From: Oscillospiraceae bacterium | GTDB taxonomy: Bacteria > Bacillota > Clostridia > Oscillospirales > CAG-382 | NCBI GenBank assembly: GCA_015063885.1 | Contig: SVTH01000007.1 | Coordinates: forward strand, 41,566 to 105,565 | Direction: 5' to 3' | DNA length: 64,000 nucleotides | Shown here: positions 5,972 to 64,000 of the stretch, piece by piece | Numbering within the stretch: position 1 is the stretch's first letter | Layout of the letters: each line of letters opens with the position of its first letter | Notes under the pieces: model-generated | Told to the model about the DNA's origin: nothing | The model's input: only the letters and a program-made list of their open reading frames with translations | Databases searched by the model: none | Program-made: the position numbers and the translations under genes

Positions 5972-6838
5972 ATGAGGCTTTTGAAGGGGCTTGCCCCCGG
6001 GCTGCCCTTGGCGTTTTTTGCCTTCCTGCTGGCGGAGCCCGCCTTCACGGCGGAGACGGTCTTACAGCGCACGGTGTTCTTTCTTTGCAAGGTGTTTCCC
6101 ACCCTGTTTCCCGCCCTGTGCCTTTCGGGGATGCTGGCGGAGTCCCCCTGGGCGGAAAAGCTGTACAGGCTCCCCCTGGGTGCGGAGCTGACGGTTTGGG
6201 TGCTGGGGATGCTCTGCGGCTTCCCCGTGGGGGCAAAATGCGCCTTCCGCCTGTACGAAGGGGGCAGGATCACCAAACGGCGGGCGGAGCTTCTCTGCGC
6301 CTTCTCGTCCCTCGCCTCAACCCCCTTTCTCCTGGGCGTGGTTGGGAGCTCCTTGTTCGGAGATCCTGCCTTCGGATGGCTTCTTGCGGCCTTACAGGGG
6401 GTCAGCTCCCTGCTGACGGCAGGGATCCTGTATACCGTCTTCCGCCCGGGGTGGCAGGGCGTCCTTTCCGTAGGGAGAGGGAACGCTTCCTTCCTCTCGC
6501 GGATCACCTCCGCCACCCGCACCGCAGGGGAGGTGGGAGGCATGCTCATCTTCTTCGGCACGGCGGCGGATTGCCTGGAACGGCTTTGCGGCTTGGAGGG
6601 CAAGGCGGGGGTGCTGGTCACCTCCTTGCTGGAATTTTCCGCAGGCTGCGGCAAGGCGGCGGAGCTGGGAGAGGGCGGGAAGCTGCTTGCCGTCCTGGCG
6701 GTGGGCTTTTCCGGACTTTGCGTCCTGGGGCAGGTGTCCGCCGTCACCAAGGGGAAGCTTTCCCTTTTGCCATATCTGGGGGGAAAACTGATCCACACCG
6801 CCTTGATGGGCGTGCTGTTTCTGACGGTCACGGGCTGA
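5972..6838 (+). CDS. Sporulation integral membrane protein, YlbJ-like (nucleoside-recognition-domain membrane protein)
   Basis: 288 aa polytopic membrane protein next to yqfCD. The family call is by resemblance only. Confidence 0.6.
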   Translation: MRLLKGLAPGLPLAFFAFLLAEPAFTAETVLQRTVFFLCKVFPTLFPALCLSGMLAESPWAEKLYRLPLGAELTVWVLGMLCGFPVGAKCAFRLYEGGRITKRRAELLCAFSSLASTPFLLGVVGSSLFGDPAFGWLLAALQGVSSLLTAGILYTVFRPGWQGVLSVGRGNASFLSRITSATRTAGEVGGMLIFFGTAADCLERLCGLEGKAGVLVTSLLEFSAGCGKAAELGEGGKLLAVLAVGFSGLCVLGQVSAVTKGKLSLLPYLGGKLIHTALMGVLFLTVTG

Positions 6839-19979: not shown

Positions 19980-20771
19980 TTATTCCTCGGGAATATAATC
20001 GGGGTAGGGGTAGAACAGCATTTTTCCTTCGGAAATACGGTATTCAAAGATCCCCACGGCACAGCCGGTAAAATAACTGTCCCCAAGCTTCACAATGGAA
20101 TTTGGGCGCGCAATGCTCCAGATCGCATTGTCGTAAAGAACGGTGGTTTCCCCGGTGTTTACGTCTACGGTGATAAGTCCCTCGGACGCGGCGATTACAA
20201 GCTTGTCGTTGTCCAAAAGAGCGGCTTTGGGAAGGATATCAAGCTCAGCCACGATTTCCAGCTTCCAGCCCTCTTCTTTCAGATCGGTGAAACGGTAGAC
20301 CGTATGAGGCATGTAGACTCCTGACAAAATATACGCCACGGGGTCTCCCATTGCTTTTTGATACAGGCCGATGACTTCTTGCCCGGTGATGACGGTCTCG
20401 GGATTGAAGATCCCTTGGGAAAGCTCACTATAGAAATTCGCAGTGGCAACCCAGCCTCCCCATTCCCCAAGAGAATCCGCGAAAAGCTGACGATAACCGG
20501 TGTATATCGAAAGAGTCGACATGGAGTCGGATGCTCCGGGGTTCAGCCAAAGCTCTCCGTGGTCTTTGCATACGTAATATATAGGCCCCTTGTAGACGTG
20601 TTCGGTATTGTAGAAAGCACGTAGCAGCATCTGTTCCTCGGTGTACTCTTCGGCCGCCAATTTGTCAAAATTTCTCCCCTTGATGTGGAGGATCTCCCCT
20701 TTTTGACAGCCCTGCAAAAGCAAGCATCCTGCTATCAAAAGAAAAACCATTGCTATCCGTAAAGCTTTCAT
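19980..20771 (-). CDS. Lipoprotein, unknown function
   Basis: MKALRIAMVFLLIAGCLLLQGC signal/lipobox. 263 aa. Start set at 20771. Confidence 0.65.
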   Translation of the reverse strand: MKALRIAMVFLLIAGCLLLQGCQKGEILHIKGRNFDKLAAEEYTEEQMLLRAFYNTEHVYKGPIYYVCKDHGELWLNPGASDSMSTLSIYTGYRQLFADSLGEWGGWVATANFYSELSQGIFNPETVITGQEVIGLYQKAMGDPVAYILSGVYMPHTVYRFTDLKEEGWKLEIVAELDILPKAALLDNDKLVIAASEGLITVDVNTGETTVLYDNAIWSIARPNSIVKLGDSYFTGCAVGIFEYRISEGKMLFYPYPDYIPEE

Positions 20772-49937: not shown

Positions 49938-50034
49938 CTTAAGGGGTCTTTCTTATAAGAAAGGCCCCTTAAGAATCCCCAAAGAATTTTTGCTTTGGGG
50001 AACGAGAAAACGCCTCCTTGCCGGGAGACGTTTT
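49938..50034 (+). repeat. REP/MITE-like palindromic element, copy 5 (divergent second half)
   Basis: CTTAAGGGGTCTTTCTTATAAGAAAGGCCCCTTAAGAATCCCCAAAGAA... Marks the left edge of the AT-rich island. Confidence 0.7.
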
Positions 50035-50431
50035 TTATTTTCACTCCCGAAAACGGGCTCTTATCTATTTCGGGAGACCTATTGCAAAAAGATACAAAAC
50101 CGCCGTTTGCAAAGAAAATTAGCATTTGATTGTTTATCTTTTTGTCAATCTTCAAATACAAAACTGGCTAAAATTTTCTCTGCCCGTTTTTCAAAAACGA
50201 TTTGTATGCAAAAGTGCGCCGCAACAACACAATTGTGTAAGTTTGTTTGTATGCAAACGTCGAAAAATTATTATATACTTGAACTTTCGAAGGGGCGTAG
50301 CGAAACCGATACTTGTCAATAGCGTTAGCGATACAGAAATGTATTGTTAACGCTACTTTTTTGTGCCAGAATATTGAAATTCGATATTTTTGTGGTATAA
50401 TGTATTCGTAAAAAACTATTTGGAGGTATTT

Positions 50432-50857
50432 ATGAAATCTCGACTGGTTGAATACAAGGGTGCTCTTTCCCTTTTACTGCAAAACGGGAAGATATTACTT
50501 GTCAATATCGCAGAAGCGCGCGCCTATCTAATTGATTTTAACAATCCCGACTATTCAAACGTCCCCAACAAGTTGGGTCCCGAAGAGCTTGCGATGGAGT
50601 CCTATCCCGGAGATACGGTTGCCTACGTTTGCGACGAAGGCTTTTTGCACATTGTGCACGCAGAAAAGTATAAGGAACTTCTTTCGGATAAAGAGTGCAG
50701 ATATTTAACGGTTCCGGAATTTGCGGAACGCCACGGTAGACAAATTGCTATTGTTCGCCGCATGTGTCAAAACGGAAGAATTGAGGGAGCCATCCAAAAA
50801 GGCAAAACGTGGCTCATCCCTGCAACAAGTCCGTACCCGACAGATATAAAGTCTTAA
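50432..50857 (+). CDS. Small protein with a C-terminal excisionase/MerR-type HTH
   Basis: RYLTVPEFAERHGRQIAIVRRMCQNGRIEGAIQKGKTWLIP. GGAGG RBS. Promoter TTGAAA-N16-TGGTATAAT at 50374-50401. Confidence 0.7.
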   Translation: MKSRLVEYKGALSLLLQNGKILLVNIAEARAYLIDFNNPDYSNVPNKLGPEELAMESYPGDTVAYVCDEGFLHIVHAEKYKELLSDKECRYLTVPEFAERHGRQIAIVRRMCQNGRIEGAIQKGKTWLIPATSPYPTDIKS

Positions 50858-50881
50858 TATAAGTCTCAATGAGGTTTCAAC

Positions 50882-51457
50882 ATGGAAGAATGCTCACGTT
50901 TTAACCGCGCCATCGATTTTCATCCACTCTGTAATCCTCCCCTTAGAAAAGGAACTTGTTTTCCTACCTTATCATCCTTGAAACTTGAGCTTCGAAAACA
51001 GCGAAAGCATCTTTTGGGTTCTCACATTTCTTTACGTTCGTTCGTCTGCGATAACAATGGAGTAAACGAGGCTCTAATCGAGAAAATGTGCGACGTCCTC
51101 TCCGGATACACGCTTCTGTTTTGGATATACAGAAACAAAAACGCCGAGGAGTTTTGCCATCATTTTTACGACATAGTTATTCATTCCCTTACCTACGAAC
51201 ATTTGCGTGACGAATCTGTTGACGACATAATTGAGCTTGCCGGATGCCTATCTTTTTCTAAAGATGTTTTTGAAACCGTGATTAAGGAACTGATGCCCCC
51301 GGATAGAATCGGAGATTTGTTCTACTTCACGGAATCGTACGATGCAGCATTCTATACATCCGCCTTTGCTGATGCTGTGTTGGGCGCTGTATCTGTCTTT
51401 TTAGGAGCATTGAAGAATCCCATAGCGGAGAACTCTGGTAAGGAGGAGCACGTATGA
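50882..51457 (+). CDS. Hypothetical protein
   Basis: 191-aa ORF in an operon. Its stop overlaps the next start (ATGA). Confidence 0.6.
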   Translation: MEECSRFNRAIDFHPLCNPPLRKGTCFPTLSSLKLELRKQRKHLLGSHISLRSFVCDNNGVNEALIEKMCDVLSGYTLLFWIYRNKNAEEFCHHFYDIVIHSLTYEHLRDESVDDIIELAGCLSFSKDVFETVIKELMPPDRIGDLFYFTESYDAAFYTSAFADAVLGAVSVFLGALKNPIAENSGKEEHV

Positions 51458-52776
51458 GTTTGATTTACGACCAAGCCAGAGTTATCCTGCGTTCCGACGG
51501 AAGCGTACATATTGGTTTCCGAAGCAAGAGAACTATTTTCGCTACTGCGGAGAATATTCTTGCTTTGTTCGCCGACCCCAACGAGTTTGTCGAAACCGGA
51601 TATCTCTCATACGAAGATTCCACTTTCATTGCCAACCGCAAAGAATTTGAGTTGCGGGATATGTTGGGTTTAACCTTAGCAGCCGTTACCAACGACAAGC
51701 AAATCGTTTGTCATTTCCCCGAACTCTTCCGATATATCAATATTGCATGTTCCTCTGCTGAAACGAAAAATGCCCATTTGAATATGACGGATTTTGCATT
51801 TGAAGAGGTTTTGTCCGACGAGAAATCTTTCTTACTGAGGCACTACCTTGAACTTGCAGGAAGCGTGCGGGCTCCTTTGACCATCAAAAAGAATATTCAG
51901 CTGAGGGACGAGGTTCAGTTCGCAATCATTCGAGAAATTCTCAACGCCTTTTTTGACGAGGAGCTTCCCGAGCCCAAATCGTCAGATGACATTTCGAAAC
52001 GTATTGAAAACATACAGCAGGCATCTCTTTTGAAAAAGGAAATGGTTCCCGACGAAGAGTATGTAACCGTTCTTCAGTATGCGCAAATACATAATTTATC
52101 TGAGAATGCCGTACGAAGCCATTTGAAAGCCGGACATATAGCCGGTGCTAAACGAAACGAACGGGGACGTTGGTTGATTCCAAGGAACGTACAACCGGAA
52201 TCTCCCAATATGCTTATCGGCAGAACAAGGAAACAAAAAAACGAAGAAAAGGCTTATAGACGTCCGGCAAACGGCAGTGCCGCAGATGTGGAGGCGCACA
52301 TTATCAAGCAACGGCTGTTCACACACGCGATTGCTCCGTTTATACATACTTTCCAGGAGCTGGATTACTATACCAAACGAAGCTATCACGAGGTTAGGTG
52401 GAACGGACGCCCTTGCTTAATTATCGATGTCAATCCGGATTATCGGTGTACCATCGATAACAAAACCAATCGGGAGCGAATGATGGCAGGAGAAGCGCCC
52501 AGAGTGCCTCAAAAAAACAAAGAGGACCGCAGCTTTGACCTCCATCACGTAGGCAGAAACGCCGCTTCTCCCTTCGCTTGTATTCCGGATTACGACCACA
52601 ACGGCTCCGGTTTTTCCTCTATTTTTCATCAGGGGTCTCACGATAAAAATTTGCATGATACCGTCTTTGCCGGTGACCGCAAGCAATTTTGGCAGACCTA
52701 TATCGAAGAGTACGATAAGGCCGGAAGGTTTGAAAAAATTCCGTATTTGAATCCTCGCGCTAAAAGAAAGAAATAG
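51454..52776 (+). CDS. Multidomain protein: unknown N-terminal region, central excisionase-type HTH, C-terminal LHH-type HNH/EndoVII nuclease-like domain
   Basis: HTH: YVTVLQYAQIHNLSENAVRSHLKAGHIAGAKRNERGRWLIP. Nuclease-like: SFDLHHVGRN...IPDYDHNG..FH. Confidence 0.65.
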   Translation: MSLIYDQARVILRSDGSVHIGFRSKRTIFATAENILALFADPNEFVETGYLSYEDSTFIANRKEFELRDMLGLTLAAVTNDKQIVCHFPELFRYINIACSSAETKNAHLNMTDFAFEEVLSDEKSFLLRHYLELAGSVRAPLTIKKNIQLRDEVQFAIIREILNAFFDEELPEPKSSDDISKRIENIQQASLLKKEMVPDEEYVTVLQYAQIHNLSENAVRSHLKAGHIAGAKRNERGRWLIPRNVQPESPNMLIGRTRKQKNEEKAYRRPANGSAADVEAHIIKQRLFTHAIAPFIHTFQELDYYTKRSYHEVRWNGRPCLIIDVNPDYRCTIDNKTNRERMMAGEAPRVPQKNKEDRSFDLHHVGRNAASPFACIPDYDHNGSGFSSIFHQGSHDKNLHDTVFAGDRKQFWQTYIEEYDKAGRFEKIPYLNPRAKRKK

Positions 52777-52781
52777 TTTCT

Positions 52782-54752
52782 ATGGGACGAAAAAAGAAAG
52801 AAACGTTCACAACAGAACTGGAAGCTCGGAAACAAGACCTAATGAGACGATTTGCCGACGAATCACCCTTGATAAGGGATAGCCTGGTTAAGGATTTGCC
52901 GGCTTTTAACGCAGTGTTAAATATCCACGCCGAATCGTTCGAAGAAATCGCTTTGCGGTATCTGGCTAAGCGGCTAGACATTGCTTACAATCCGCAGAAA
53001 CCGCCCACTCCCCCTTGTCCGTTTTGTCACCAAACTGATACGGTAGGTAGAAAAACAGGGTTCATGTTCCGTTGCAAGCATTGCGAGAAAACCTTTTCTG
53101 CTACCCATGAAAGTATCGCTTCTGGAACAAAATGCGATGCGTTAACCTGGATGAAGATTTTGCAGAGCCTTTTAAATAATGTCAGTATCACCCAAACCTG
53201 CGAATACTGCGGAATATCGGAAAACACTTATTACAACATTCGGAACAGATTGTTTTACGCAATGTCTATTTTGCTAAAGGAATTGAGGCTGTACGGGAAC
53301 ATCGAAGTAGATAACACCTTTGTCCGAGTCAGTTACAAGGGAGTCAATTTGCAAGAAAGCGAATTTCCGGAGGACAGCATCTTTTTTGACGATACTTTTA
53401 AGCCGCGAGCTGCTAGGGACCGAGGCAGCGCGGTGCCATCGAGCGTAAAAAATGCTAATCACATCTGCATTTTCACCGGTATCGATGACCGGGGGCACGT
53501 TTTGGCTCGGTTTGTGGGCGTGGGAAACATCAGCTATCTTTCGTTGAAGCATTACATCCCGTCAGAGCTCTTCCTTTCTCAGGTGCCTCAAACAGACCCG
53601 TTTGCACTGGCTAAAAAGCAACGCAAGGATAAAAAAGAGCCCGAGACAAAGCCGTTGCAAAAGTCCAGGATAATTGCGGACAAAGAGGGGGCTATCCAGC
53701 GTTACGCCCAAACGCTCGACGTTGAATTCGAGTCTCACGTATATCGAAAGGACGGCATCCAGCGCCGATTGTCCAAGGATGCTTTGGGCATCCAACACGT
53801 TAACGCCCTGCATCGCCGTTTGAAAACCTTTCTTCGGATGCATGGATACATGTCTTCTAAATACCTTCCTGGTTTTTTAACGCTGTTTGAGTTTGTAGAA
53901 AACACGCGAGCCTCTCAGGAAGCAATCGCCGAATTGTTTCGGATTATTGCCTGCCCCGGCTTAGGAAAACCGCCTTCATTTTTCAAAAACATGTTTACGG
54001 TTCCCAACTACCTCGTGGAGTGGTTGCATAGCGAGCATCCTCTGAAGAAACTACCGCACAACAAAATGCTTGCGTTTTACATGATGGATATCATGAAGCA
54101 TCCGGACCTGTATCCGGATGAAAAGGTTACCATGGCGCAAATCGAGGAGGAAACCCAATATACGGCTCCAACAATTCGCAAAATATATCGAGAGCTCAAT
54201 GACGCCGGATACCGAGACTTGATTATTCAGTACTTCTCTCCTTCGAAGAAAAAGAAGGAGACGGAGAAACAAGGAAAGAAAAAGGCGCCTGCGCCGACCA
54301 CTATCAATCCAACGGTCCTTGCTATTTACGATGCGTATGCCGAGGTATGTAAAATCCCCCAGTGGAAACGGCCAACCTTCGAGCAATTCTTGGCAGAGAA
54401 AAACAAGGAGCTTAACACCAATTACAAACGAACCAACATGATGGCGAAATTCAAGTACATACAAAACAGCGGGTTGAGGCAGCCATTCGAAAAGCGTAAC
54501 AAGGAAGAGCCACGCGACTTAGCGTTTGAATTGCTTCGCGCTTATGAGGAACTGAGAGCGAGTTATCAGGAAAAAGGCGAACCATTGCCTCGTGTGGAGA
54601 GCATGACTGCCACTATTGGGGAGCGATATAATGTGTCTGCTCATACTGTTAAAGCTCAGGTTTCAACCGCCAGAGCTTATTTAAGCCGGCAAAGAGAACT
54701 TGATGCGCAATCCGAGACTACAGCGACGGTTGAGGCAGAGAACAAAAATTAA
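52782..54752 (+). CDS. IS1595-family (ISXO2-like) DDE transposase homolog with an N-terminal zinc ribbon and a ~250-aa C-terminal extension; operon-embedded
   Basis: CPFC..(N15)..CKHCEKTFSA zinc ribbon. IEVDNTF (D), IIADKEG (D), HVNALHRRLKTFLR (N..K), matching the DDNK arrangement of IS1595. No terminal inverted repeats seen. Confidence 0.65.
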   Translation: MGRKKKETFTTELEARKQDLMRRFADESPLIRDSLVKDLPAFNAVLNIHAESFEEIALRYLAKRLDIAYNPQKPPTPPCPFCHQTDTVGRKTGFMFRCKHCEKTFSATHESIASGTKCDALTWMKILQSLLNNVSITQTCEYCGISENTYYNIRNRLFYAMSILLKELRLYGNIEVDNTFVRVSYKGVNLQESEFPEDSIFFDDTFKPRAARDRGSAVPSSVKNANHICIFTGIDDRGHVLARFVGVGNISYLSLKHYIPSELFLSQVPQTDPFALAKKQRKDKKEPETKPLQKSRIIADKEGAIQRYAQTLDVEFESHVYRKDGIQRRLSKDALGIQHVNALHRRLKTFLRMHGYMSSKYLPGFLTLFEFVENTRASQEAIAELFRIIACPGLGKPPSFFKNMFTVPNYLVEWLHSEHPLKKLPHNKMLAFYMMDIMKHPDLYPDEKVTMAQIEEETQYTAPTIRKIYRELNDAGYRDLIIQYFSPSKKKKETEKQGKKKAPAPTTINPTVLAIYDAYAEVCKIPQWKRPTFEQFLAEKNKELNTNYKRTNMMAKFKYIQNSGLRQPFEKRNKEEPRDLAFELLRAYEELRASYQEKGEPLPRVESMTATIGERYNVSAHTVKAQVSTARAYLSRQRELDAQSETTATVEAENKN

Positions 54753-54804
54753 CCTCTCTGCCAAGAGGTTAAATTATAGATTTCGTGTTTTTTCGTTTTC
54801 CCTC

Positions 54805-54833
54805 TTGATTTTTACTGCGTTGCGTGGTAAAAT
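54805..54833 (+). promoter_or_regulatory. Promoter TTGATT-N17-(TG)GTAAAAT
   Basis: Read directly. Lies downstream of the hairpin TTAACCTCT..AGAGGTTAA that follows the DDE gene. Confidence 0.65.
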
Positions 54834-54839
54834 ACAGTC

Positions 54840-55053
54840 ACTGCAAGCGAACGGCTTGTAAATATACGCCAGACGTTGGCCAGGGTAAGACGCTATCAAT
54901 CGGCTCCCTTGAATGGGGCGTAGCTTACATGTGAGCCAACCTACTGAAATAGTAACAGCGCTGATTTAGGATTGAGTTTACAACTCTGAGTATTTGGCTG
55001 TGCGCTCGGAAACATAGATGCCATGAAACGTCTTATACGGTTGACGTTTTTTT
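54840..55053 (+). ncRNA. Candidate ~215-nt structured non-coding RNA (unknown class)
   Basis: Bounded by the promoter above and the terminator AAACGTC-N10-GACGTTT+T7. Has several internal hairpins and no credible ORF or RBS. Confidence 0.5.
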
Positions 55054-55095
55054 GGTGTGCTTGTTTCCAATCTCAAAAACATATTTATGGTTTCA

Positions 55096-55127
55096 AGCCC
55101 GATGGCATCTATGCTGTCGGGCTTTTT
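55096..55127 (+). terminator. Second terminator hairpin; its loop is complementary to 55013-55024
   Basis: AGCCCGA-N14-TCGGGCT+T5. ATGGCATCTATG (55102-55113) is the exact reverse complement of CATAGATGCCAT (55013-55024). Confidence 0.65.
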
Positions 55128-55213
55128 GTCGTTCGTATGCAGGGAAAGGAGGCACGATGCATCGCAGCGCAAATATGTATGCGCCCCACAAAAAGGATGA
55201 GGAATAAGGAAGC

Positions 55214-55771
55214 ATGAGCATTATAAGCAAAATCAAAGCCTTCTTTTCCGTAGGCGGAAACCAATTCTCATTGGACCTCAAATCTGCGGAAGTAAGGCAA
55301 GACAGGACGTTTTTACATCCTGCCGACAACGACAACGTGACTTACGTGGTAAAGGCAAGCAACGTACAGCTTCTTCTGAACGACGGAGAAGACATAGCAC
55401 CGGAGGATTTTATGGTGGTGGAAGGAGCCGTTGACCCGGCTACGAAGCCTAAGATTTTGCCTCCTACGACCCCGAAACCCCGTGGGCCCCAAACGCCGGA
55501 TTGTTTGCGGACACCGCGAGACCCCGAAGATACTCCGCCGCACCTTACCAAACGGAAAATCACCTTTACTGTCTATGAAGACGAGTTTTCTCTCATAAAC
55601 AGGTTGGTTAAGGAATCCGGATACAAACGCTCAATATTTTTCGTGGCTTGTATCCAGAACTCGCAGAAGAAGTCTGTGGCAGGTAGCTTATCCGTAGAAT
55701 GCAACCGCGTGCAAAAATCTTTAGAAAGGAGAGAGCAGGAGCAAAAAGAACGATTGCTGACTGACCGATAA
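55214..55771 (+). CDS. Protein with a Pro-rich linker and a C-terminal ribbon-helix-helix (MobC-like) domain
   Basis: KRKITFTVYEDEFSLINRLVKESGYKRSIFFVACI resembles RHH/MobC-type domains. AAGGAAG RBS. Confidence 0.6.
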   Translation: MSIISKIKAFFSVGGNQFSLDLKSAEVRQDRTFLHPADNDNVTYVVKASNVQLLLNDGEDIAPEDFMVVEGAVDPATKPKILPPTTPKPRGPQTPDCLRTPRDPEDTPPHLTKRKITFTVYEDEFSLINRLVKESGYKRSIFFVACIQNSQKKSVAGSLSVECNRVQKSLERREQEQKERLLTDR

Positions 55772-55842
55772 TACGTTATTTGTCAGGGACGCAATCACTC
55801 ATTCGTACATTTATATCTTATTTACTACAAAGAGGTGCAAAA

Positions 55843-57441
55843 ATGAAGAGAATTCGTTACCATTCCGCAACGGAGCTTTTGGAAAAGGCGCGCCAAAAGA
55901 TGGTTCCGTTGCCGAACCAATGGGCGGCACAGAAGAGGATTGCGTCCCTAATTGCCATGCACTTGAGCAAGCTGCAAGCCCTTGATAAAGGCGCAGACCC
56001 GGGGGAGCTGGTCAGCTGCTCGGCGTTCTTGGTTGGTCCCACCGGCAACGGGAAGACCTACATCATCAAATGTCTGGCAGAGGCCTGCGGTCTGCATTTC
56101 GCTGCCATTGACTGCACGTCCATCACCCAGGCAGGTGTCCGTGGGAAAAATCTGGGAGACAATCTGGCCGCCATCAAAAGCGAGAACCCTGCCTTTTTCG
56201 AGGGTGGAATTCTTCTCTTGGATGAAGCAGACAAGGCGTTCTACAAAGGCGACCCGCACTACGATGCCTACTCGCCGATGCAGGAATTTTTGAAGCTGAT
56301 GGAGGGCGGGGAGTACTCCTTCCGGTCGGATGGCATAAGTGGAACCGTCAATCTGGATAAGACCCTCATCCTATTGGCGGGCGCTTGCGCCAACATCGTA
56401 CATATTCTAAAAAGGCGGTACAATCCGCGCCCCGTCATTGGCTTTTCGTCGCAAAGCCCCGGGTCTGAGATTGACATTGAGAACTACGGCCCGTACGTCA
56501 CCCTTGATGACCTGATTGCTTACGGCATGATGCCCGAGCTTGCCTCTCGTATCAACACAGTCATTGCGATTCCCAAAATTGACGAGGCAGGGTATCAGCG
56601 GTTACTTATCGACACCGCTAAGACATCTGCGTTGAATCGTTTTCGCAATCAGTTCGCCATGCGGGGTGTCGCACTGGATATCGCTCCCGAGGCGGTTCAA
56701 AGGATTGCCGAACTGTGTGTTGAGAGAAACGTGGGGGCTCGCTCTATCAACGCCATTCTCTTCGAGAAGCTTTCTGAGGCTTACAGCGCCGTAGACGATA
56801 CCCCAACCCACGGCAGAGTCATTCTTCAAACAGACGAACTTGGAGAACTCCAAACAGTGTATCAGGAGGGGGAGCGTCTTTCCTTCCCGATGTTCACGGA
56901 ACGAGCCTGCTTTGATGGGGATTTCTCCATCAAGGACAAACTCCGGGATGAAGACTCCATCAATCGACTTTGCGATGATATATGCGCAAAGGCGTCCTTG
57001 GAAGACGTGTCTGCCGAGCCATTACTCTATTACTTCCTGCAAACAGCGTGTCGCTACATGGCGGAGGAGGTTCGCCCGGAGGACAGGAGCATGGTCAACC
57101 TATGCAGGCTCGCTGGCGCCACGGAGAAACCGGATAGTTCTAAAGCCGGTAAGTCTCCCTTTGACATCGTCTGCGAGGACTACCTTTTGAAAATCATCTC
57201 CAAGGCGGAGGACAGTTTGAAGCACCAAGAGGAGGAAGCTCCTCTGTCGCGTGTATCGAAAAACCGGATGTGGGCGACCTCCAAAGACCATTTCAAGTAC
57301 GCCATTTTTAATCATTATTACTCGGCGTTCTGCCGGACGGAGAGACAGCACGCAGACGTACCAAAGGTGTTGGCGGAAGCCATCGATACTGCAAGGAAAC
57401 ATTACATATCCAATAAAAAAGAAAAGAGCAGCACTATATAA
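55843..57441 (+). CDS. ClpX/HslU-like AAA+ ATPase lacking the zinc-binding domain, with a ~180-aa C-terminal extension
   Basis: Walker A GPTGNGKT, Walker B ILLLDEADK. PELASRIN...IPKIDEAGYQRLL and VGARSINAIL align with ClpX sensor and arginine regions. Confidence 0.75.
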   Translation: MKRIRYHSATELLEKARQKMVPLPNQWAAQKRIASLIAMHLSKLQALDKGADPGELVSCSAFLVGPTGNGKTYIIKCLAEACGLHFAAIDCTSITQAGVRGKNLGDNLAAIKSENPAFFEGGILLLDEADKAFYKGDPHYDAYSPMQEFLKLMEGGEYSFRSDGISGTVNLDKTLILLAGACANIVHILKRRYNPRPVIGFSSQSPGSEIDIENYGPYVTLDDLIAYGMMPELASRINTVIAIPKIDEAGYQRLLIDTAKTSALNRFRNQFAMRGVALDIAPEAVQRIAELCVERNVGARSINAILFEKLSEAYSAVDDTPTHGRVILQTDELGELQTVYQEGERLSFPMFTERACFDGDFSIKDKLRDEDSINRLCDDICAKASLEDVSAEPLLYYFLQTACRYMAEEVRPEDRSMVNLCRLAGATEKPDSSKAGKSPFDIVCEDYLLKIISKAEDSLKHQEEEAPLSRVSKNRMWATSKDHFKYAIFNHYYSAFCRTERQHADVPKVLAEAIDTARKHYISNKKEKSSTI

Positions 57442-57517
57442 TGCTACAAAACTTAGGAGGAGAAGCACACATCAGCCATCAATTTCCCCAAACAACCAAA
57501 CTTAAGCACGACAACGA

Positions 57518-57702
57518 TTGAAAAAATATGACGTTAGTTGTATACTGCGTACGCTACACAATTCTAATCTACAGTTGTCGGGAACCACTTTGGTAAAAGG
57601 TGCGTTCTCTTTTCGTCATACCCGGCAACTGGTACGAATTGTGTAGCAACAATGAGGAGAGCACTTTTTCGGTGTGCTCCCTCGTTGGAGCACACTTTTT
57701 TT
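57518..57702 (+). promoter_or_regulatory. Promoter plus riboswitch-like structured leader with alternative antiterminator/terminator
   Basis: TTGAAA-N17-TATACT. Nested helices GCTACACAATTC/GAATTGTGTAGC and AGTTGTCGGG/CCCGGCAACT. GAGCAC..GTGCTC overlaps the terminator GTGTGCTCC..GGAGCACAC+T7. Confidence 0.55.
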
Positions 57703-57727
57703 ATTCTCAAGAAAGGGACACCTAAGT

Positions 57728-59155
57728 ATGAACACCAAAAAAATGAAGAAACTGTGTTTTGCCGCTACAGCTTGCTTGCTATTCGCCTTCGTTACCCTGT
57801 TGGCAAGCTGTGCTCCGGATAACACTCCCGCCTCCTCTTCTGCGGAAAGCTCGAACAACGAAAATTCCGAGTTATCCAAACACGAAAGCACTATCTCTGA
57901 CGAAAGTTTTTCGCCATCATCCTCCGAAACCGAATCCGGCTCCTCCTCAGATGCTTCCGACGAGGAATCTTCTGAGCCTTCCGATGACATTTCAACAGAG
58001 CCATCGGCTTCTCCGGAAGAATCCGATGTCACATCTTCACAAGACAATTCACCGGAACCCTCCAGCGAACCCGGCGAACAGGAGAACTCAGAAGACATCT
58101 CAGAGCCTCCTGTACACGTGCACGAATGGGAAGAAGCCGATTGCGAAAACCCAAAAACCTGCGTGACGTGCGGCGAGACGACCGGCACTGTCGCAGGACA
58201 TGATTGGCAGATTGCTACGTGCACGTCTGCTAAGACCTGTGCGACCTGCGGAAAGACCGAAGGCTCTGCCAAGGGCCATAATTGGAAAGCCGCCACCTGC
58301 GTCTGTGCTAAGACCTGCCAGGTCTGTGGGGCAACCGAAGGGGAAGCCAACGGACACGATTGGCAAGGGGCCACCTGCACAATCGCAAAAACGTGCAAGA
58401 CCTGTCAACAAACAACCGGCAACGCGAACGGTCATCAATATCTCGACGGCGTATGTGAAACATGCGGTGAAAGGGACCCTGACTACCAAGAACCGATTAC
58501 ATATTCGCAAGGTTTGGCCTATCAAGTAAATGAAGATGGAAAAACCTGCTCGGTCAGTATCGGAACGTGCACCGACGCTGACATAAGCATCCCGCCGACA
58601 ATCGACGGATATATCGTTACTGAAATTGGCGAAGATGCCTTTGCAAACTGCGCAAACATAACAAGCATCACCATTCCGGATAGCGTGACCACTATCTCTT
58701 ATTATCCCTTTGCACGTTGCCCAAATTTGGTTTTTACGCAATACGAGCAAGGGCTATATTTAGGAACCAGCACCAATCCATACCATGCATTGGTGGGGAT
58801 TGCCTCTGATGACACGGGTTCTGTCGTTTCGTTTAAGGTTCACGAAGATACTAAGTGTATTGCCGACAACACGTTCGGCGGCTGCTTTAATATGGTGAGC
58901 ATCGAGCTTCCGAATGGCATAACTCGTATTGGACGCCGTATGTTCGAAGACTGCGAAAGATTAGAAAGCGTGCACGTGCCCGGCAACGTGACACAGATTG
59001 CAGCTGGAGCATTCCAGGGTTGCCGCAACTTAGAGCGTGTAACCTTTGAAGGAACGGTAACCCAGTGGGACGTCATCACCAAGGGCAATTTCTGGAACGA
59101 CAACGTTCCCGCCGCCGAAGTGGTTTGCTCTGATGGCACTGTGAGTCTGGCGTGA
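57728..59155 (+). CDS. Lipoprotein with an S/E-rich linker, four Cys-rich ~24-aa repeats and BspA-type leucine-rich repeats
   Basis: Lipobox LLASC. Repeats GH.W..ATC...KTC..CG.T.G at about 58112-58474. LRR segments (ITSITIPDSVTTI..., ITRIGRRMFEDC...). Confidence 0.75.
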   Translation: MNTKKMKKLCFAATACLLFAFVTLLASCAPDNTPASSSAESSNNENSELSKHESTISDESFSPSSSETESGSSSDASDEESSEPSDDISTEPSASPEESDVTSSQDNSPEPSSEPGEQENSEDISEPPVHVHEWEEADCENPKTCVTCGETTGTVAGHDWQIATCTSAKTCATCGKTEGSAKGHNWKAATCVCAKTCQVCGATEGEANGHDWQGATCTIAKTCKTCQQTTGNANGHQYLDGVCETCGERDPDYQEPITYSQGLAYQVNEDGKTCSVSIGTCTDADISIPPTIDGYIVTEIGEDAFANCANITSITIPDSVTTISYYPFARCPNLVFTQYEQGLYLGTSTNPYHALVGIASDDTGSVVSFKVHEDTKCIADNTFGGCFNMVSIELPNGITRIGRRMFEDCERLESVHVPGNVTQIAAGAFQGCRNLERVTFEGTVTQWDVITKGNFWNDNVPAAEVVCSDGTVSLA

Positions 59156-59226
59156 ATTTCCAGCTTCTGCTCACCATGACGCAAAAGCAATAGTCTTAAG
59201 AGCACACAATAAAATGGAGCACGTAT

Positions 59227-60168
59227 ATGAAAGAATTTTACATAGTTGACCTGGTCAAGAATCTGGTACACAACAAGAATCTCTTTGCGTTGACGTATCT
59301 GTTTTTGAATCTCTTCGTGGTTTGCGGGTTGTTTTTCGTGTTATTCGGCGAATCCTTTGCCGGCGTTATAATAGGATTGGTTATATATCTGATTTCGGCA
59401 TTGATTGGTCTGTCTCCCGTGGGGGAATGGTTCTTACGGCGTTCACACAAATGCATTCCCATAGAGCGTTATGAGGACCGAAGCGCTGGGAAACGGCTTT
59501 CTGCGCTTTTTGGCGAGGTTTGTTCTTCGGCTGATAAAAGCGGCATTTCTGTACGTGAGAAGGAGAAAATCTCTCTTTTTATTCACGAGGGCGATGACCT
59601 GAACGCCTTTGCGATTGGTCGCAAAACCATTTGCGTAACGAGCGCACTTTTAGAACTTCCTGATGATGAAATCAAAGCCATCTTCGGGCATGAGCTGGGG
59701 CATCTGACTACGCACGATACGGACTTGGTGCTCCTTGTCTCGGCAGGTAACTTTATCGTTTCTGCCATCGTGACAGTTTTCAAACTGTTCGTTATGCTTT
59801 TCCAGCTGATAGTTACTATCGCAATCGCTTTCTGCGGAGACGAGGGAGCGATAGTTAACGTCTTCACGAAAGTTGCGAGCTTCCTCTCGCTGGTTCTGGT
59901 TAACTTCGTGATGTTCGTTTGGACGAAAATCGGCATTTGGATGGTAATGAAAACCTCCCGTAATGCAGAATTTGAAGCAGACGCCTTTTCCTGTCGCCTT
60001 GGCTACGCCGACGGTTTGCTTTCATTCTTCCAGAGGATATATAATGACGAACCGACGTATAGCGTGAAAAAGGGCTCCGACCTCTTTGCTGCGCTTTCGG
60101 ATTCCCATCCCGCGACAGCCCACCGGGTACGGAAGGTGGTTGAATACGTGAAGCGTACGACAGTGTAA
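59227..60168 (+). CDS. M48-family (HtpX-like) membrane zinc metalloprotease
   Basis: HELGHLTTHD (HEXXH), four TM helices, downstream E...D motif (NAEFEADAF). Confidence 0.8.
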   Translation: MKEFYIVDLVKNLVHNKNLFALTYLFLNLFVVCGLFFVLFGESFAGVIIGLVIYLISALIGLSPVGEWFLRRSHKCIPIERYEDRSAGKRLSALFGEVCSSADKSGISVREKEKISLFIHEGDDLNAFAIGRKTICVTSALLELPDDEIKAIFGHELGHLTTHDTDLVLLVSAGNFIVSAIVTVFKLFVMLFQLIVTIAIAFCGDEGAIVNVFTKVASFLSLVLVNFVMFVWTKIGIWMVMKTSRNAEFEADAFSCRLGYADGLLSFFQRIYNDEPTYSVKKGSDLFAALSDSHPATAHRVRKVVEYVKRTTV

Positions 60169-60259
60169 CACGGATACTTGTTAGTCGGCGAAACGAACCA
60201 CCCCTAAAGATATTGCAAGCAAAAACAGGGCCGATTGCAACTCTACTTTCCCACTCCCG

Positions 60260-60343
60260 TTTTGACATAAAAACCCATTTTGCTTCATTTTCCTGTAAAA
60301 AATAGCGCCAGCTTGATTGAAAATGGGATTTTTATGTCAAACG
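60260..60343. repeat. Long imperfect hairpin (22-bp stem, 38-nt loop)
   Basis: TTTTGACATAAAAACCCATTTT ... AAAATGGGATTTTTATGTCAAA(C). One bulged base. Confidence 0.8.
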
Positions 60344-60384
60344 TTCTCTCTGAAAATCCAAAAAATGCCCCGAAAGGATTGACT

Positions 60385-60802
60385 GTGCGCCCAGCATGGG
60401 CGATAACTTGGTGGAGAAAGTCCACTATACGCTCAGTAGCAGGAAGTGTTAGCCGAAGCAAGGGTGTACATCGCAAGGTGGAATCCGAAGGAAGCCGTGT
60501 CGAAAGGCAGCGGTTGAGCTCGCAGAAGTCAGCTCCACTCGTAGTACCAAAGGAGTGACTAGCCACCACGAAGGGAGGGAAGAAGTTGTGTGAAATTAAA
60601 GTCGAAAGATTGTGCTTGAAAACAGTTGCTCTGCAGAGATTGAATGACTGAGGGTAGGTTGGGAACCGAGAGTCGAAGTCAAGAGTGTTTAGCAATCATC
60701 AAAAGAGGAGTCGCAAGCGACGACTTATCGAAGCACCGCGTACGGTTCCGTACGCACGGTGTTGCGGGAGGACGGGGGGAGTCGCCCCCCCACCAGCCCG
60801 AT
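60385..60802 (+). ncRNA. ORF-less group II intron-like ribozyme, class C (IIC)-like, ~418 nt
   Basis: 5' GTGCGCCCAGCATGGGCG. Domain I-like GTTAGCCGAAGCAAGGGTG...GGAATCCGAAGGAAGCC. Domain V AGCACC-GCGTACG-GTTC-CGTACGC-AC-GGTGTT at 60732-60763 (AGC triad, AC bulge). A G6/C6 domain VI-like hairpin with an unpaired A. No room for a reverse-transcriptase ORF. Confidence 0.75.
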
Positions 60803-61342
60803 TGGCGTTTTTTCTTCGTCACACTTCATGCGCACCTCATACTCGCTCGACTTCTGTTGCTTTTTATCGGATGGCAATCTTTCAAAAAACAACCATCGGC
60901 TTTTTATAAGTGGAGGGATTTCTACAGAACTCTTTCGACCATCTGCTCGTGCTGTCTATTAAGAGCCGGGGCATAAGAAAATTGCCATTGTCGCAAGGTC
61001 TGATATATTTCGCAACAAACTTATGGTATAATCCAGCATTCGTATAATATAGCAAAATACGTTTCGATAAAGTTTCTTAAAACAGGTGATTTTTTGTCAA
61101 AAAAACACAAAAATGAAAAAAATGGTCAGCGCCTATTGAAAACGAAAAAGTATTATGATAAAATAGTACATCTGGTGTTATATCGTGAAGCAACTCAAAT
61201 ATACATAAAATTACACTTTAGCACAGGCTTCGACAATATGGGGTCGAAGATGTTGTCCAAACGAAAGTTCCTGTCTAACCGGTGTCTTTCTAAAACAACA
61301 TCTCTGCATTTGTGCAGCCATGAGCAAGATTGTGAGGAGAGA

Positions 61343-61924
61343 ATGAATTTACCTGCTATTGAAGTCGCGAAATACCTTATACGTTTGTATTTTCAGTCGA
61401 GTATTCGATATCATTGCACATTGACAAAAATTGAGAAGCTGATGTTTATTGCAGAATTGGTATGTTTAAAGAATGATGCCAGTCTATTTTCCGAAGATAT
61501 TTTAGACAAGAATTGTGGTGTCGGGATTGACGGGTTGGAGCTCGAGTTGCCAAACGAAATTTTAAATATTCGGGAACAAAACCAAGACAATGACACAGGC
61601 GAAACGGATATCCCCATTGGAGATGTTACATTTTGCGGAAATTCTGTTCCGGATTTGTTTCAAATTGGCGCGGATATTTCGTTTGAACCGTCTGTTGAAC
61701 GTTTGTTGGTTGATGTATTCAGATATTTTGGGAATTATAAAGCGAGAACATTGGGTAGTCAAATCGATGAACTTAAGCCTTACATAATCAGAACCTTAGA
61801 CCCGTTGACCCAAAACAAAAGCATCGACAGAAGTATAATCAAAACCGGCTTTGATACTATTCCAGTCTCAAAACTCGAGAATAATGAAATTTATATCTTC
61901 GCAAAAAACATTAAGGAACTTTAA
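61343..61924 (+). CDS. Hypothetical protein with weak Panacea/DUF4065 (SocA-type antitoxin)-like N-terminus
   Basis: AIEVAKYLI...CTLTKIEKLMFIAELV resembles the (A)KYFL..ITNLKLQKLLYYAQ motif. GAGGAG RBS. The listed 61094 TTG start was rejected. Confidence 0.5.
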   Translation: MNLPAIEVAKYLIRLYFQSSIRYHCTLTKIEKLMFIAELVCLKNDASLFSEDILDKNCGVGIDGLELELPNEILNIREQNQDNDTGETDIPIGDVTFCGNSVPDLFQIGADISFEPSVERLLVDVFRYFGNYKARTLGSQIDELKPYIIRTLDPLTQNKSIDRSIIKTGFDTIPVSKLENNEIYIFAKNIKEL

Positions 61925-61927
61925 ATT

Positions 61928-63046
61928 ATGGCTACTTGTTCCGCCAACGATTCTCTCTTGAAATTTTGCAATTGCGTCTTTGAAGTTATGGATACCTGTT
62001 CTTCAATTAGTGAATTGCCAAAGTGTTGCAAAGATTTTATTGACACATGCTACGTTTCGTTCGGAGAAATCAACCAGCGCTTTGATGCCGCAGCGTACTT
62101 GTCGCTATCTCTTTACATAGATGAATTATTCAACAAGCAAATAAACACAGATATTCGTGACAAAAATGTTTCTACTTTAAGATTTGATACCGATAGTTTG
62201 TACGACATGACTTTGTTCATGGAGGAATACTGCAAAGCCAATCAAATTTGCGATTTTCCCAAAACCATTTTAGAGGACATTTGTTCATTGATTCTTCAGC
62301 GGTTTCGCTCTTTCAAGAATATGGTTCTTTACTCTCAAAATGTGGCTAATAAGCAGTCTAGGGCGCATGTTGCCTCTATGACTCGTATTGTTGAATCTCG
62401 CCAGAACGAGTTGCTGAAACAAATTGACACTCGTTTTAAAGACACACAACAAGCAGTCGATGTTTTGGAAAGCGAACTGGCGGCTCGGGAAAAAGATGCG
62501 CATGACCATAGCATTACTATTCTTGGTGTTTTCTCCGCAATTGTCTTAGTTTTTAATGCAGCAGTTAGTTTTTTTACGTCTGCATTTGGTGCATTCAGCA
62601 ACGCCAGTATATATAAAATACTGACGATTCTCTTGATTATCGGCGTGATTTTTGTTGGCGCAATGATGGGGCTGTTTTTCTATCTTGATAGAATTCGCCC
62701 TTCCGACAAATTCGAGTTTCTTAAGAACAAAAAAGAGAAGCAATCCTCAAGTGAAATGATATATGTTGTAGATAAAGCCGAAAGCGGCGTTAGAATATTA
62801 AAACTGCTTTTGCCTTTTTTGATTACATTAGTGATATTGATAATAATGCTTCTTATCGTTCTTTACTCGTGGGAAGTAGGCTTAGTAGAGGCAAGGAATC
62901 AATCTCTTTTTGCACAAGAATCTAAAACGGATTCTGAAACGGGTTTTGAAACGGATTCTGAAACGGATGTAGTAACATCCATTCAAGAAGAGTTGTCGCA
63001 GCCGGAAGACGAATCTGAAGAGACAACTTCTGCAATTGCCGAATGA
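61928..63046 (+). CDS. Membrane protein (coiled-coil region, 3 TM helices, acidic tail), unknown function
   Basis: 372 aa. Starts 4 nt after the previous stop, suggesting coupling. Confidence 0.6.
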   Translation: MATCSANDSLLKFCNCVFEVMDTCSSISELPKCCKDFIDTCYVSFGEINQRFDAAAYLSLSLYIDELFNKQINTDIRDKNVSTLRFDTDSLYDMTLFMEEYCKANQICDFPKTILEDICSLILQRFRSFKNMVLYSQNVANKQSRAHVASMTRIVESRQNELLKQIDTRFKDTQQAVDVLESELAAREKDAHDHSITILGVFSAIVLVFNAAVSFFTSAFGAFSNASIYKILTILLIIGVIFVGAMMGLFFYLDRIRPSDKFEFLKNKKEKQSSSEMIYVVDKAESGVRILKLLLPFLITLVILIIMLLIVLYSWEVGLVEARNQSLFAQESKTDSETGFETDSETDVVTSIQEELSQPEDESEETTSAIAE

Positions 63047-63070
63047 CAAGTAAAACTATCTTTCAAAATA

Positions 63071-63234
63071 TTGACAAAGCATCCCGAATATGGTAATATA
63101 CCCCTGTAATCCAAATAAAGTAGGTACGAAGCATGAAGGAAAGGTGTTTAAGCTCCGCACCGTATAAGCCAATCAATCGAATCAAACAAATTTTTAGCAC
63201 GAGGTTGCCCCAAGGGGTCATCTCGTGCTTTTTC
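63071..63234 (+). ncRNA. Candidate small RNA with its own promoter and terminator
   Basis: TTGACA-N17-(TGG)TAATAT. Terminator AGCACGAG..CTCGTGCT+T5. Only an 11-codon ORF lies inside. Confidence 0.45.
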
Positions 63235-63323
63235 GTTGTCCGCAAACAACAGGATAGGTCAGGCTTGTCACCTTGCCCTATTTGACATAGAAAAACAAAA
63301 AATAAAATAAGGAGATTTACGCT

Positions 63324-64000
63324 ATGAAAACCACGACAACCAGACTTTTGTCAGTGCTTCTCTGCCTTGCCATGATTTTCGTGACTATTCCTCATTCAAT
63401 CCTGGCGCAGATTTCCGAAACACTGAACGACACCACTGATGCCGAAGCAACCGAAACGGTTGCCCAGGACGTTTACGTCCTCGGCGAGGTCATCGACAAC
63501 CGAACCGAAACCAGCAAGACCTTCCGCATGTCAGACGGCAGCTTCATTGCCGCCGATTACGGACAGGTCATCCATTACGCTGGAGAAGACGGCACATGGA
63601 CCGATTACGACAACACCCTGACCTTCTCCGAAGCGTCTGCCAGAGATGTCGACGATATGGCGGGGTACGGCAATACCGGTTCCGACCTTCGCATCAAGCT
63701 GGCGAACAACTCCAACTCCAACAACCTTGTGAAGCTCACCATGGGCAACTACAAAATCAGCCTGCACCTGGTAGGCGCAGACAAGAGCAAGGCGTTGGAA
63801 GTTTATCCCGCTATGGAAGACCCGGAGGGCAACGACATTGACTCCGCGGCTACCCTTCATAAATTCTCTTCTGGTGCTATCTATGAGGATATCCTGCCCG
63901 ACGTGGACCTGGAATACATTATTTCCGGTGGCACCGTTAAGGAAAACATCATCATCAAGGATACCGCCGACAGCTATACGTATACCTTCGAGCTGAAACT
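63324..64000 (+). CDS. N-terminus of a large secreted RHS/wall-associated polymorphic-toxin-type protein (runs off the window)
   Basis: Not in the ORF track because there is no stop. Hand translation gives MKTTTTRLLSVLLCLAMIFVTIPHSILAQ...NRTETSKTFRMSDGSFIAADYGQVIHYAGEDGTWTDYDNTL. GGAG RBS. Confidence 0.65.
   Translation, partial: MKTTTTRLLSVLLCLAMIFVTIPHSILAQISETLNDTTDAEATETVAQDVYVLGEVIDNRTETSKTFRMSDGSFIAADYGQVIHYAGEDGTWTDYDNTLTFSEASARDVDDMAGYGNTGSDLRIKLANNSNSNNLVKLTMGNYKISLHLVGADKSKALEVYPAMEDPEGNDIDSAATLHKFSSGAIYEDILPDVDLEYIISGGTVKENIIIKDTADSYTYTFELK

Follow-up and report, generated by a model that had tools for sequence, protein, structure and literature searches.

The window analysed here, a 64,000-nucleotide stretch of an Oscillospiraceae bacterium contig (SVTH01000007.1, assembly GCA_015063885.1, positions 41,566 to 105,565 of the forward strand), contains an AT-rich tract that an earlier note, made from the sequence alone, had placed at 50040-63300 and regarded as a horizontally acquired defence or conflict island without recognisable mobility genes. 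We conclude that this island is, in all likelihood, the left part of a 22,455-bp IS1595-type cargo transposon that carries an RHS toxin gene. The element possesses two IS1595-type transposases, terminal inverted repeats and a target-site duplication, and relatives retain the corresponding empty site; hence, the island and the RHS gene form one transposon. Positions are those of the window, and "extended" coordinates continue beyond its right end.

To delimit the insertion, we used 29 contigs gathered by the exact CotF-like, 656-aa and 372-aa proteins. The island-bearing contigs are 99.9-100% identical to the window, and several of them run past it; L020 and L021 add 9 kb rightward (L020 coordinate + 51927 = extended coordinate), and it is from such near-identical contigs, outside the 64-kb window, that the right end was read. 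One 22,455-bp insertion extends from 50056 to ~72510 (extended), and the AT-rich island makes up its left 13.3 kb, i.e., ~60% (Table 1). The inverted repeats, GGCTCTTATCTATTTCGGGAGAC, begin with GGCTCT and occur once at each element end and nowhere internally, with 0 copies expected by chance. The empty site in L004 reads CCCCCGAAAACGACAGTTTTCGG and holds a single, uninterrupted copy of CGAAAACG, the 8 bp that flank the element as a direct repeat. In L004 and three further relatives (L003, L005, and L008; flanks 80-90% identical), cotF is followed almost directly by a minus-strand gene encoding a 439-aa Ig-like surface protein. In the island strain this gene resumes only at L020 20582, which equals extended 72509; thus, the insertion measures ~22.5 kb and not 13.3 kb. 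Its target was the terminator hairpin between cotF and the Ig-like surface-protein gene. Inverted repeats, a direct 8-bp repeat and an empty site are together the signature of DDE transposition.

The drop in GC content is real, with 1-kb windows of 0.52-0.63 over window positions 1-50000 and of 0.36-0.54 over 50001-63000; the mean is 0.559 for the host part and 0.455 for 50056-63323. The left edge given in the earlier note, 50040, was only 16 bp off the true element end, where the left inverted repeat starts. Its right edge, 63300, is no boundary, as the RHS gene (GC 0.507) and ~9.2 kb past the window end share the insertion, and host-like GC (0.57) is back only after extended coordinate 72510. 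The whole element has a GC content of 0.47, compared with 0.56-0.57 in the host, and is heterogeneous inside (0.365 to 0.52); 63300 marks only an internal shift in cargo composition. The note's ten substantial plus-strand coding sequences in the interval were found again, and the proposed horizontal acquisition is supported by the restriction of the element to one near-clonal lineage, whose relatives keep the exact empty site. Far from being a block common to all relatives, the island is missing from a contig that is 99.1% identical over the cotF flank (L002) and from the 80-90% identical relatives.

Some observations concern the insertion site itself. The position after cotF (window 49938 onward) is a strain-variable hotspot, with a 923-aa gene in L003, L006, and L009 and a 174-aa gene in L005; L002 carries wholly different genes downstream of cotF, starting 118 bp ahead of the transposon left end. 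What had been called "REP copy 5" is the hairpin after cotF, and the window holds no further copy of it at <=3 mismatches. An initial reading, in which the left six-gene module occupied several genomic contexts, was dropped when blastn showed that these were the same locus with differing gene calls.

Both ends of the element encode a transposase of the same family. The right-end gene g14 exceeds the cut-offs of Pfam DDE_Tnp_IS1595 (30.2 vs 27), NCBIfam transpos_IS1595 (111 vs 75) and the IS1/IS1595 zinc-binding domain, IS1_IS1595_Zn (32.7 vs 28), and its homologues bear the NCBI name "IS1595 family transposase". From its domain content we therefore take g14 to be a canonical zinc-ribbon DDE transposase of the IS1595 family; the neighbouring gene, g13, encodes its WYL-like partner. 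The possibility that g13 and g14 constitute a separate small insertion sequence (IS) with its own repeat pair was considered and rejected, because only two repeat copies are present across the 22 kb.

The other transposase gene, g4, lies within the island and had previously received only a helix-turn-helix (HTH) call. Its product aligns with g14, the canonical transposase of the same element, over 300 residues (BLASTP 2e-22, 23% identical), and it matches NCBIfam transpos_IS1595 over the full model length with 72.5 bits (cut-off 75). By tblastn, the ISSag10 and ISCaje5 transposases are matched at 1e-17, with ~25% identity in the core. When 17 homologues of 33-90% identity are aligned, C79, C82, C98, C101, D177, D300, N341, and K348 are invariant or nearly so, and the residue spacing fits what we take to be the D-D-N-K type motif of IS1595-group transposases. 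The sole match in the C-terminal extension is a weak, sub-threshold HTH_36. On these similarities g4 is predicted to be a diverged paralogue of g14, that is, an IS1595-type zinc-ribbon DDE transposase. Tyrosine and serine recombinases, capsid, portal and relaxase genes are indeed missing from the window open reading frames (ORFs) in Pfam, PHROGs, and NCBIfam scans, as the earlier note stated. Its broader claim, that the island has no mobility gene and is not a standard prophage, integrative and conjugative element or IS, fails with respect to the IS: the ORF at 52782-54752 is an IS1595-type transposase gene, a second one stands at the far end, and the pair of IS1595-type DDE transposases is accompanied by terminal inverted repeats and an 8-bp duplication.

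Three genes, g1-g3, precede g4 at the left end. The product of g1 weakly matches HTH_17 (Pfam) and a Cox-like excisionase/repressor PHROG (1e-6); the gene stands beside the inverted repeat also in L030, L031, L034, L042, L043, and L045, and it encodes a putative end-binding or regulatory protein. No family match was found for g2 in Pfam and NCBIfam scans, and its homologues occupy the equivalent position in L030, L031, L042, and L045. The LHH domain of g3 scores above the Pfam cut-off (5.5e-11), and neither the 13 locus-derived nor the 31 database homologues deviate at H364, H365, H382, or H392. In the AF2 model of g3 (pLDDT 81), the HTH part matches Xis/BldC in a Foldseek search against PDB; the same search with the whole model gave no significant match for the N-terminal and LHH domains, and a PDB sequence search with g3 was empty. 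In related loci g3 is always immediately 5' of g4, and here the two genes are 5 bp apart.

Table 1. Features of the 22,455-bp element and its borders, from left to right. Positions are window coordinates unless an L020 or extended coordinate is given.
Feature	Position	Strand	Description
Target-site duplication, left copy	50048..50055		8 bp, CGAAAACG
Left terminal inverted repeat	50056..50091	+	23 bp perfect GGCTCTTATCTATTTCGGGAGAC at 50056-50078; ~33/36 extended
g1	50432..50857	+	141 aa; C-terminal excisionase/MerR-like HTH; first gene inside left repeat
g2	50882..51457	+	191-aa conserved protein; end overlaps g3 start
g3	51454..52776	+	440 aa; N-terminal domain, Xis/BldC-like winged HTH, C-terminal LHH nuclease (HNH/EndoVII, His-Me finger)
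g4	52782..54752	+	656-aa predicted long-form IS1595-type transposase; zinc ribbon, HTH_23, DDE-type core, ~270-aa C-terminal extension
g5	55214..55771	+	185 aa; paired with g6
g6	55843..57441	+	532-aa ClpX-like AAA+ ATPase without ClpX N-terminal zinc domain; ~200-aa C-terminal extension
g7 leader	57553-57700		Long perfect-stem hairpin, then terminator-like hairpin; z = -7.8
g7	57728..59155	+	475-aa lipoprotein-like surface protein; Cys-rich repeats, BspA-type LRR_5 8e-29
g8	59227..60168	+	313-aa membrane M48 (HtpX-like) zinc metallopeptidase; Peptidase_M48 1.3e-20
Group II intron-like RNA (tentative)	60385..60802	+	ORF-less, ~418 nt; 5' GUGCG; in 925-bp g8-g9 gap
g9	61094..61924	+	276 aa (or 193 aa from 61343); GC 0.365; cargo
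g10	61928..63046	+	372-aa coiled-coil, multi-transmembrane protein with acidic tail; GC 0.386; cargo
Candidate small RNA or leader	63071..63233	+	Promoter, ~125-nt transcript and intrinsic terminator (63196-63233); upstream of RHS gene
RHS/YD-repeat toxin gene	63324..64000, on to ~69605 off-window	+	2093 aa, secreted; signal peptide, variable C-terminus
g12	off-window, overlaps RHS stop codon		224-aa lipoprotein-like protein; putative immunity gene
g13	off-window, beside g14	-	236-259 aa; weak WYL match (Pfam)
g14	off-window, just inside right repeat	-	377-388-aa canonical IS1595 transposase
Right terminal inverted repeat	L020 20561-20583	-	23/23 match to left GGCTCTTATCTATTTCGGGAGAC; off-window
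Target-site duplication, right copy	L020 20584-20591 = extended 72511-72518		Direct repeat of CGAAAACG; off-window

The element belongs to a small and unnamed family as judged by g4, which has 84 homologues in a set of 5.8 billion proteins and falls into 57 clusters at 50% identity among 1.84 billion representatives (E <= 1e-30); full-length relatives were found by tblastn in none of 72,556 plasmids or 50,697 phages. The 47 homologues of g3 are encoded on the same contigs as those of g4, and the homologues of g14 (at least 238) outnumber both. The contigs derive from uncultured Eubacteriales, Oscillospiraceae, and Acutalibacteraceae of the animal and human gut. According to tblastn synteny, the order g1-(g2)-g3-g4 is kept in L030, L031, L032, L034, L042, L043, and L045, and g13-g14 stand at the opposite end in L040, L041, L042, and L045. 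L035-L037 show a compact arrangement, in which the HTH protein (147 aa) and the LHH nuclease (170 aa) are separate proteins, the g4-like protein has 669 aa and a 353-aa IS1595 transposase is encoded convergently. Two further elements are complete: that of L035 spans 10.8 kb, with repeats starting GGCTCTATTCAAGTTTTGT (23/25 matching) and the duplication TGATTTTG, and that of L042 (12.7 kb) ends in perfect repeats of 28 bp, GGCTGTAGTTCATTTTAGGAGACTTTTT, flanked by the duplication ACAAAAAT. In 12 loci, the end motif GGCTSTWNTYYANKTY directly adjoins g1 or g14 on the outer side. L030 represents an independent insertion, in which an element 77-93% identical to that of the window resides in a different species next to an unrelated flank.

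The cargo differs from element to element and includes RHS in L032, a resolvase, a methyltransferase and an M78 peptidase in L042, and PcfJ in L045. Directly after g4, L043 has a ToxN/AbiQ-type toxin gene (12247-12858), and a tyrosine integrase gene is present in L035 (13095-14180), either as cargo or as part of a nested element. Comparison of L030 (7266-7298) with the window (50046-50078) showed that the same 10 bases, CCCGAAAACG, precede the left repeat in both; shared by two sites only, they hint at a target preference. The three known duplications (CGAAAACG, which occurs at two independent sites, ACAAAAAT, and TGATTTTG) have an A/T-tract core in common, a further hint of such a preference.

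The ends of other members are less regular. An internal repeat search in L036 gave no convincing terminal repeats, and in L037 the left-end motif was located at 8497 and its right partner was not found. In L045, a ~105-bp unit that resembles a miniature inverted-repeat transposable element (MITE) and consists of left and right family repeats (6610-6716) directly borders on the left repeat of the complete element; it might represent a junction of two repeats or a non-autonomous derivative. The right end of the same element shows a partial repeat duplication (20003-20015). An exact inverted-repeat scan of metagenome contigs returned 0 matches, and a follow-up protein scan returned 4 short loci. 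JGI 3300018475, the sample from which contigs with the window element also derive, contains a second g14/g13 pair, ~50% identical and spread over many short contigs (L050; 22 read), and the g14/g13 family may thus be multi-copy in this community. Among the cargo of the L048/L050-type member are genes for an AAA+ ATPase, a radical SAM enzyme, and LRR_5 and FHA proteins.

How much of this conserved gene set takes part in transposition can be seen in more than one way. It is possible, though we consider it rather unlikely, that only g14 (with g13) and the repeats represent the machinery, as in an IS1595 "transporter IS", and that g1-g4 are cargo, perhaps a second, captured or domesticated IS1595-derived module. 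In that case cleavage of empty sites by the LHH nuclease could, for instance, lead to restoration of the element by repair, or the module as a whole could serve for addiction or exclusion. Canonical IS1595 elements with their single transposase gene (PMC8101967) would agree with such a division, as would the larger size of the g14 family and the g14/g13 pairs of L047 and L048, which lie beside the same repeat type with no detectable g1-g4 within 10 kb. However, all g4-bearing elements with both ends visible (those of the window, L035, L042, and L045) have g14, and in each of them g1 stands directly against the opposite repeat; moreover, g1-g4 hold a fixed position and order while the cargo varies freely. 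The zinc ribbon and D-D-N-K residues of g4 and the catalytic His of g3 are kept over 35-90% divergence, and this conservation implies selection for activity.

We find it highly improbable that the tract is a non-mobile defence or conflict island, accreted in a variable hotspot beside a separate RHS locus. The variation among strains downstream of cotF (L003, L005, and L002), the RHS toxin in the cargo together with ToxN in other family members, and the uneven GC content (0.365-0.52), which suggests mosaic assembly, could be reconciled with such an origin, but the island and the RHS gene are enclosed together between perfect repeats and an 8-bp duplication, with a precise empty site in relatives, and the enclosed unit encodes two IS1595-type transposases. 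PADLOC likewise lends no support to a defence island: PADLOC-DB v2 gave no significant system for the ten window proteins, only three weak single-protein matches (E 8e-5 to 5e-3) on HTH or low-complexity stretches, the best of them, at 8e-5, on a zinc-ribbon/HTH stretch. The least probable account is that a prophage, phage satellite or integrative mobilisable element has decayed here and lost its integrase and structural genes. The tract is bordered by inverted repeats and a target duplication rather than by direct att repeats, and integrase, capsid, portal, terminase, tail, relaxase, type IV secretion and replication genes are absent both from the ten window ORFs (Pfam, PHROGs, and NCBIfam) and from the off-window g12, g13, g14, and RHS C-terminus (Pfam; for g14 also NCBIfam). 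The PHROG matches (Cox-like excisionase HTH, phrog_4339, phrog_1281, and phrog_5763), the Xis-like HTH of g1 and g3 and the tyrosine integrase of the L035 element would agree with such an origin; nevertheless, when the 50,697 phage records were searched with g4 by tblastn, the only matches were to two Streptococcus phages, both with an ordinary inserted IS1595 element.

The cargo transposon that we favour is itself confronted with several observations that speak against it or against parts of it. Its right end was taken from near-identical contigs rather than from the window itself. Transposition is unobserved, and every copy of the exact element occupies one site. L002, in spite of its 99.1% identity over the cotF flank, diverges 118 bp before the left repeat and offers no clean empty site. 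The g4 protein falls 2.5 bits short of the NCBIfam cut-off and is without a Pfam DDE match. Given L047 and L048, g1-g4 may be dispensable for movement, and the minimal machine may be g14 (with or without g13) and the repeats. Any role of the LHH nuclease in transposition is purely conjectural, and elsewhere such domains are known from toxins.

With these reservations, the movement of the cargo transposon might proceed as follows. The DDE transposase(s) would bind the 23-36-bp ends and integrate the element with an 8-bp staggered cut, as IS1595/Merlin transposases do. The LHH nuclease g3 could cut the second (non-transferred) strand at the ends and so allow full excision, in a TnsA-like manner; alternatively, it could cleave empty or donor sites. 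The proteins g1 and g13 would regulate transposition or recognise the ends. We propose, tentatively and without favouring it over simpler schemes, that the element is the first example of an undescribed gut-Clostridia family of large cargo transposons, in which an IS1595/Merlin DDE transposase has turned into a multi-component machine (two paralogues at opposite ends, an LHH nuclease and Xis-like/WYL-like proteins), converging on TnsA/TnsB logic, preferring terminator-like A-tract targets and spreading RHS, ToxN and conflict genes.

Everything between the left and right modules, ~14 kb, is cargo. The RHS gene has an RHS_repeat match (3.9e-12) in its C-terminal third, together with further precomputed RHS_repeat and TEN_YD-shell matches. 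RHS repeats, a YD shell, a variable C-terminus and a small gene after it identify it as a predicted polymorphic toxin of the RHS/YD type; neither the C-terminal toxin domain nor the 224-aa protein has a Pfam family. The earlier note had located the island beside a polymorphic-toxin locus. Both the toxin gene and its small downstream neighbour are instead cargo of the same element, and the conflict function is therefore carried by the transposon itself. Judging from its domains, the RHS cassette would give the host a function in interbacterial competition.

Among the remaining cargo genes, g6 displays AAA, AAA_2, and ClpB_D2-small domains (Pfam). It resembles ClpX in PDB (6e-31) and in NCBIfam (1e-35), the latter with 123 bits against an equivalog cut-off of 359, a score that leaves it outside ClpX proper. 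Presumably, its motifs correspond to those of ClpX, namely Walker A at 65, an AGVRG pore-1 loop at 97 (not GYVG), Walker B at 124 and an IGF-like VIGFS at 198; the VIGFS loop suggests possible docking on ClpP. Homologues of g6 are encoded in L030, L037, and L039, with a similar AAA+ gene also in L048, and LRR_5 genes like g7 occur in L030, L047, and L048; ClpX-like ATPases and LRR_5 surface proteins are thus recurrent in the family, including the window element, but not universal. For g5 there is no family match in Pfam, and L037 has a 44%-identical homologue at the same locus, ~3.8 kb from its g6 homologue. The g8 product has weak matches to HtpX models (NCBIfam), and its gene is missing from the L030 element. 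The sole match of g9 is to PHROG 1281 (function unknown; 7e-6); g10 matches PHROG 5763 (function unknown; 1.5e-10), has sub-threshold matches only in Pfam, and has a homologue beside the L036 element. The low GC content of g9 and g10 (0.37-0.39) suggests a separate acquisition.

The earlier note had pointed to several near-consensus promoters and to structured RNAs in the island. Promoter-like sites do exist at 50374-50401 (11/12 with TG), 63071-63099 (10/12 with TG) and 54805-54833 (9/12 with TG). Such sites are not enriched, though, with 21 compared with 18.4 +/- 4.4 in shuffled sequence, and the same applies to terminator-like sites (19 vs 15.8 +/- 4.6). Structured RNAs are plausible for two or three segments; none fits a known family, and at gathering score Rfam detects 0 families inside the island. 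The segment at 60385-60802, tentatively an ORF-less group II intron-like RNA, shows two co-linear matches on the same strand, both below the gathering score: group-II-D1D4-3 (24.1/32 bits, 60467-60514) and Intron_gpII (22.2/40 bits, 60731-60802). Two hairpins stand out in its minimum-free-energy fold, the first (60732-60763) D5-like, with a 2-nt bulge and an AGC triad, and the second D6-like; the fold z is -2.3, and the D5 loop is GUUC, not GNRA. No homologue was found: the window has no second copy, the L030 element lacks the segment, and a D5 sequence scan of viral contigs was empty. Other Rfam matches at permissive thresholds (MIR529, Hrs13, and plastid D5) were discarded as noise.

Upstream of the RHS gene, 63071-63233 (fold z = -2.9; no Rfam family) is a candidate small RNA or attenuating leader. 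It is 94% identical to L030 (18904-19156), whereas the adjoining RHS N-termini share only 72% protein identity. The g7 leader, which is partly kept in L030 (81%) and L034 (77%), could be an attenuator or an inverted-repeat element. Like the g7 leader, the segment 54986-55135 folds far better than its shuffles (z = -4.1).

The IS1595 family is defined by 8-bp duplications, GG-starting repeats as in its Merlin/IS1016 relatives, and a single transposase gene encoding a zinc finger and DDE_Tnp_IS1595 (PMC8101967). With IS1595 elements such as ISSag10 and ISCaje5, and the passenger-carrying ISNha5 and ISNwi1, the element described here shares the 8-bp duplication, the GG repeats and a transposase with zinc ribbon and DDE_Tnp_IS1595. 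It departs from their compact single-gene plan in its size of 22,455 bp, its two paralogous transposases at opposite ends and its conserved g1, g2, g3, and g13. Canonical IS1595 members measure ~0.7-8 kb.

As a working analogy, the element may be likened to Tn7. Both are large cargo transposons in which a DDE transposase gene is paired with a nuclease gene and DNA-binding helpers; both also appear to insert at specific intergenic or terminator-type sites, often with an AAA+ ATPase aboard. The parts, however, are non-homologous: the nuclease is of the His-Me/LHH type here and has a restriction-enzyme fold in TnsA, the transposase is of the IS1595/Merlin type in contrast to the rve/Mu-type TnsB, the ATPase is ClpX-like and absent from several family members, unlike the TnsC/MuB-like one of Tn7, and the duplication is 8 bp instead of 5 bp. 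In line with this, rve, TnsA, and TnsC domains were not found in Pfam or NCBIfam scans, which places the element outside the Tn7-like group. The eukaryotic KolobokP (PMC9587614) likewise unites a cut-and-paste DDE transposase and a His-Me finger nuclease in one repeat-bounded element; its transposase is of another superfamily, and the likeness noted here is one of architecture. Rhs/YD toxin cassettes have the same RHS repeats, variable C-terminus and small overlapping putative immunity gene, but the present one travels as cargo on a DDE transposon, and its host is a Gram-positive spore-former. Finally, ORF-less group II ribozymes (IIC/HYER) are 0.4-0.6 kb long according to PMC11754743, which cites Liu et al. 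2024. The segment at 60385-60802 is similar to these in size, GUGCG and the order of D5/D6-like hairpins and dissimilar in its sub-threshold Rfam scores and its D5 loop.

Our literature searches, which did not extend to ISfinder or TnCentral, turned up no IS1595 element reported to have an LHH/His-Me nuclease, a second transposase or RHS cargo, and we provisionally regard the family as undescribed. DDE transposition itself is established biology, and the mechanistic novelty is an inference. Our analysis also illustrates that a "mobility-gene-free" island can be an artefact, produced by a divergent transposase that stays under domain cut-offs and by a window that ends before the other end of the element. 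IS1595/Merlin elements are treated as simple single-gene ISs, whereas the superfamily can build 10-22 kb transposons with conserved multi-gene machinery, including a separate nuclease. The few conserved parts (repeats, two transposases and a nuclease) are directly testable by a transposition assay. If confirmed, the family would represent an independent origin of heteromeric transposition, alongside Tn7, and a means by which polymorphic toxins and further conflict genes pass among uncultured gut Oscillospirales.

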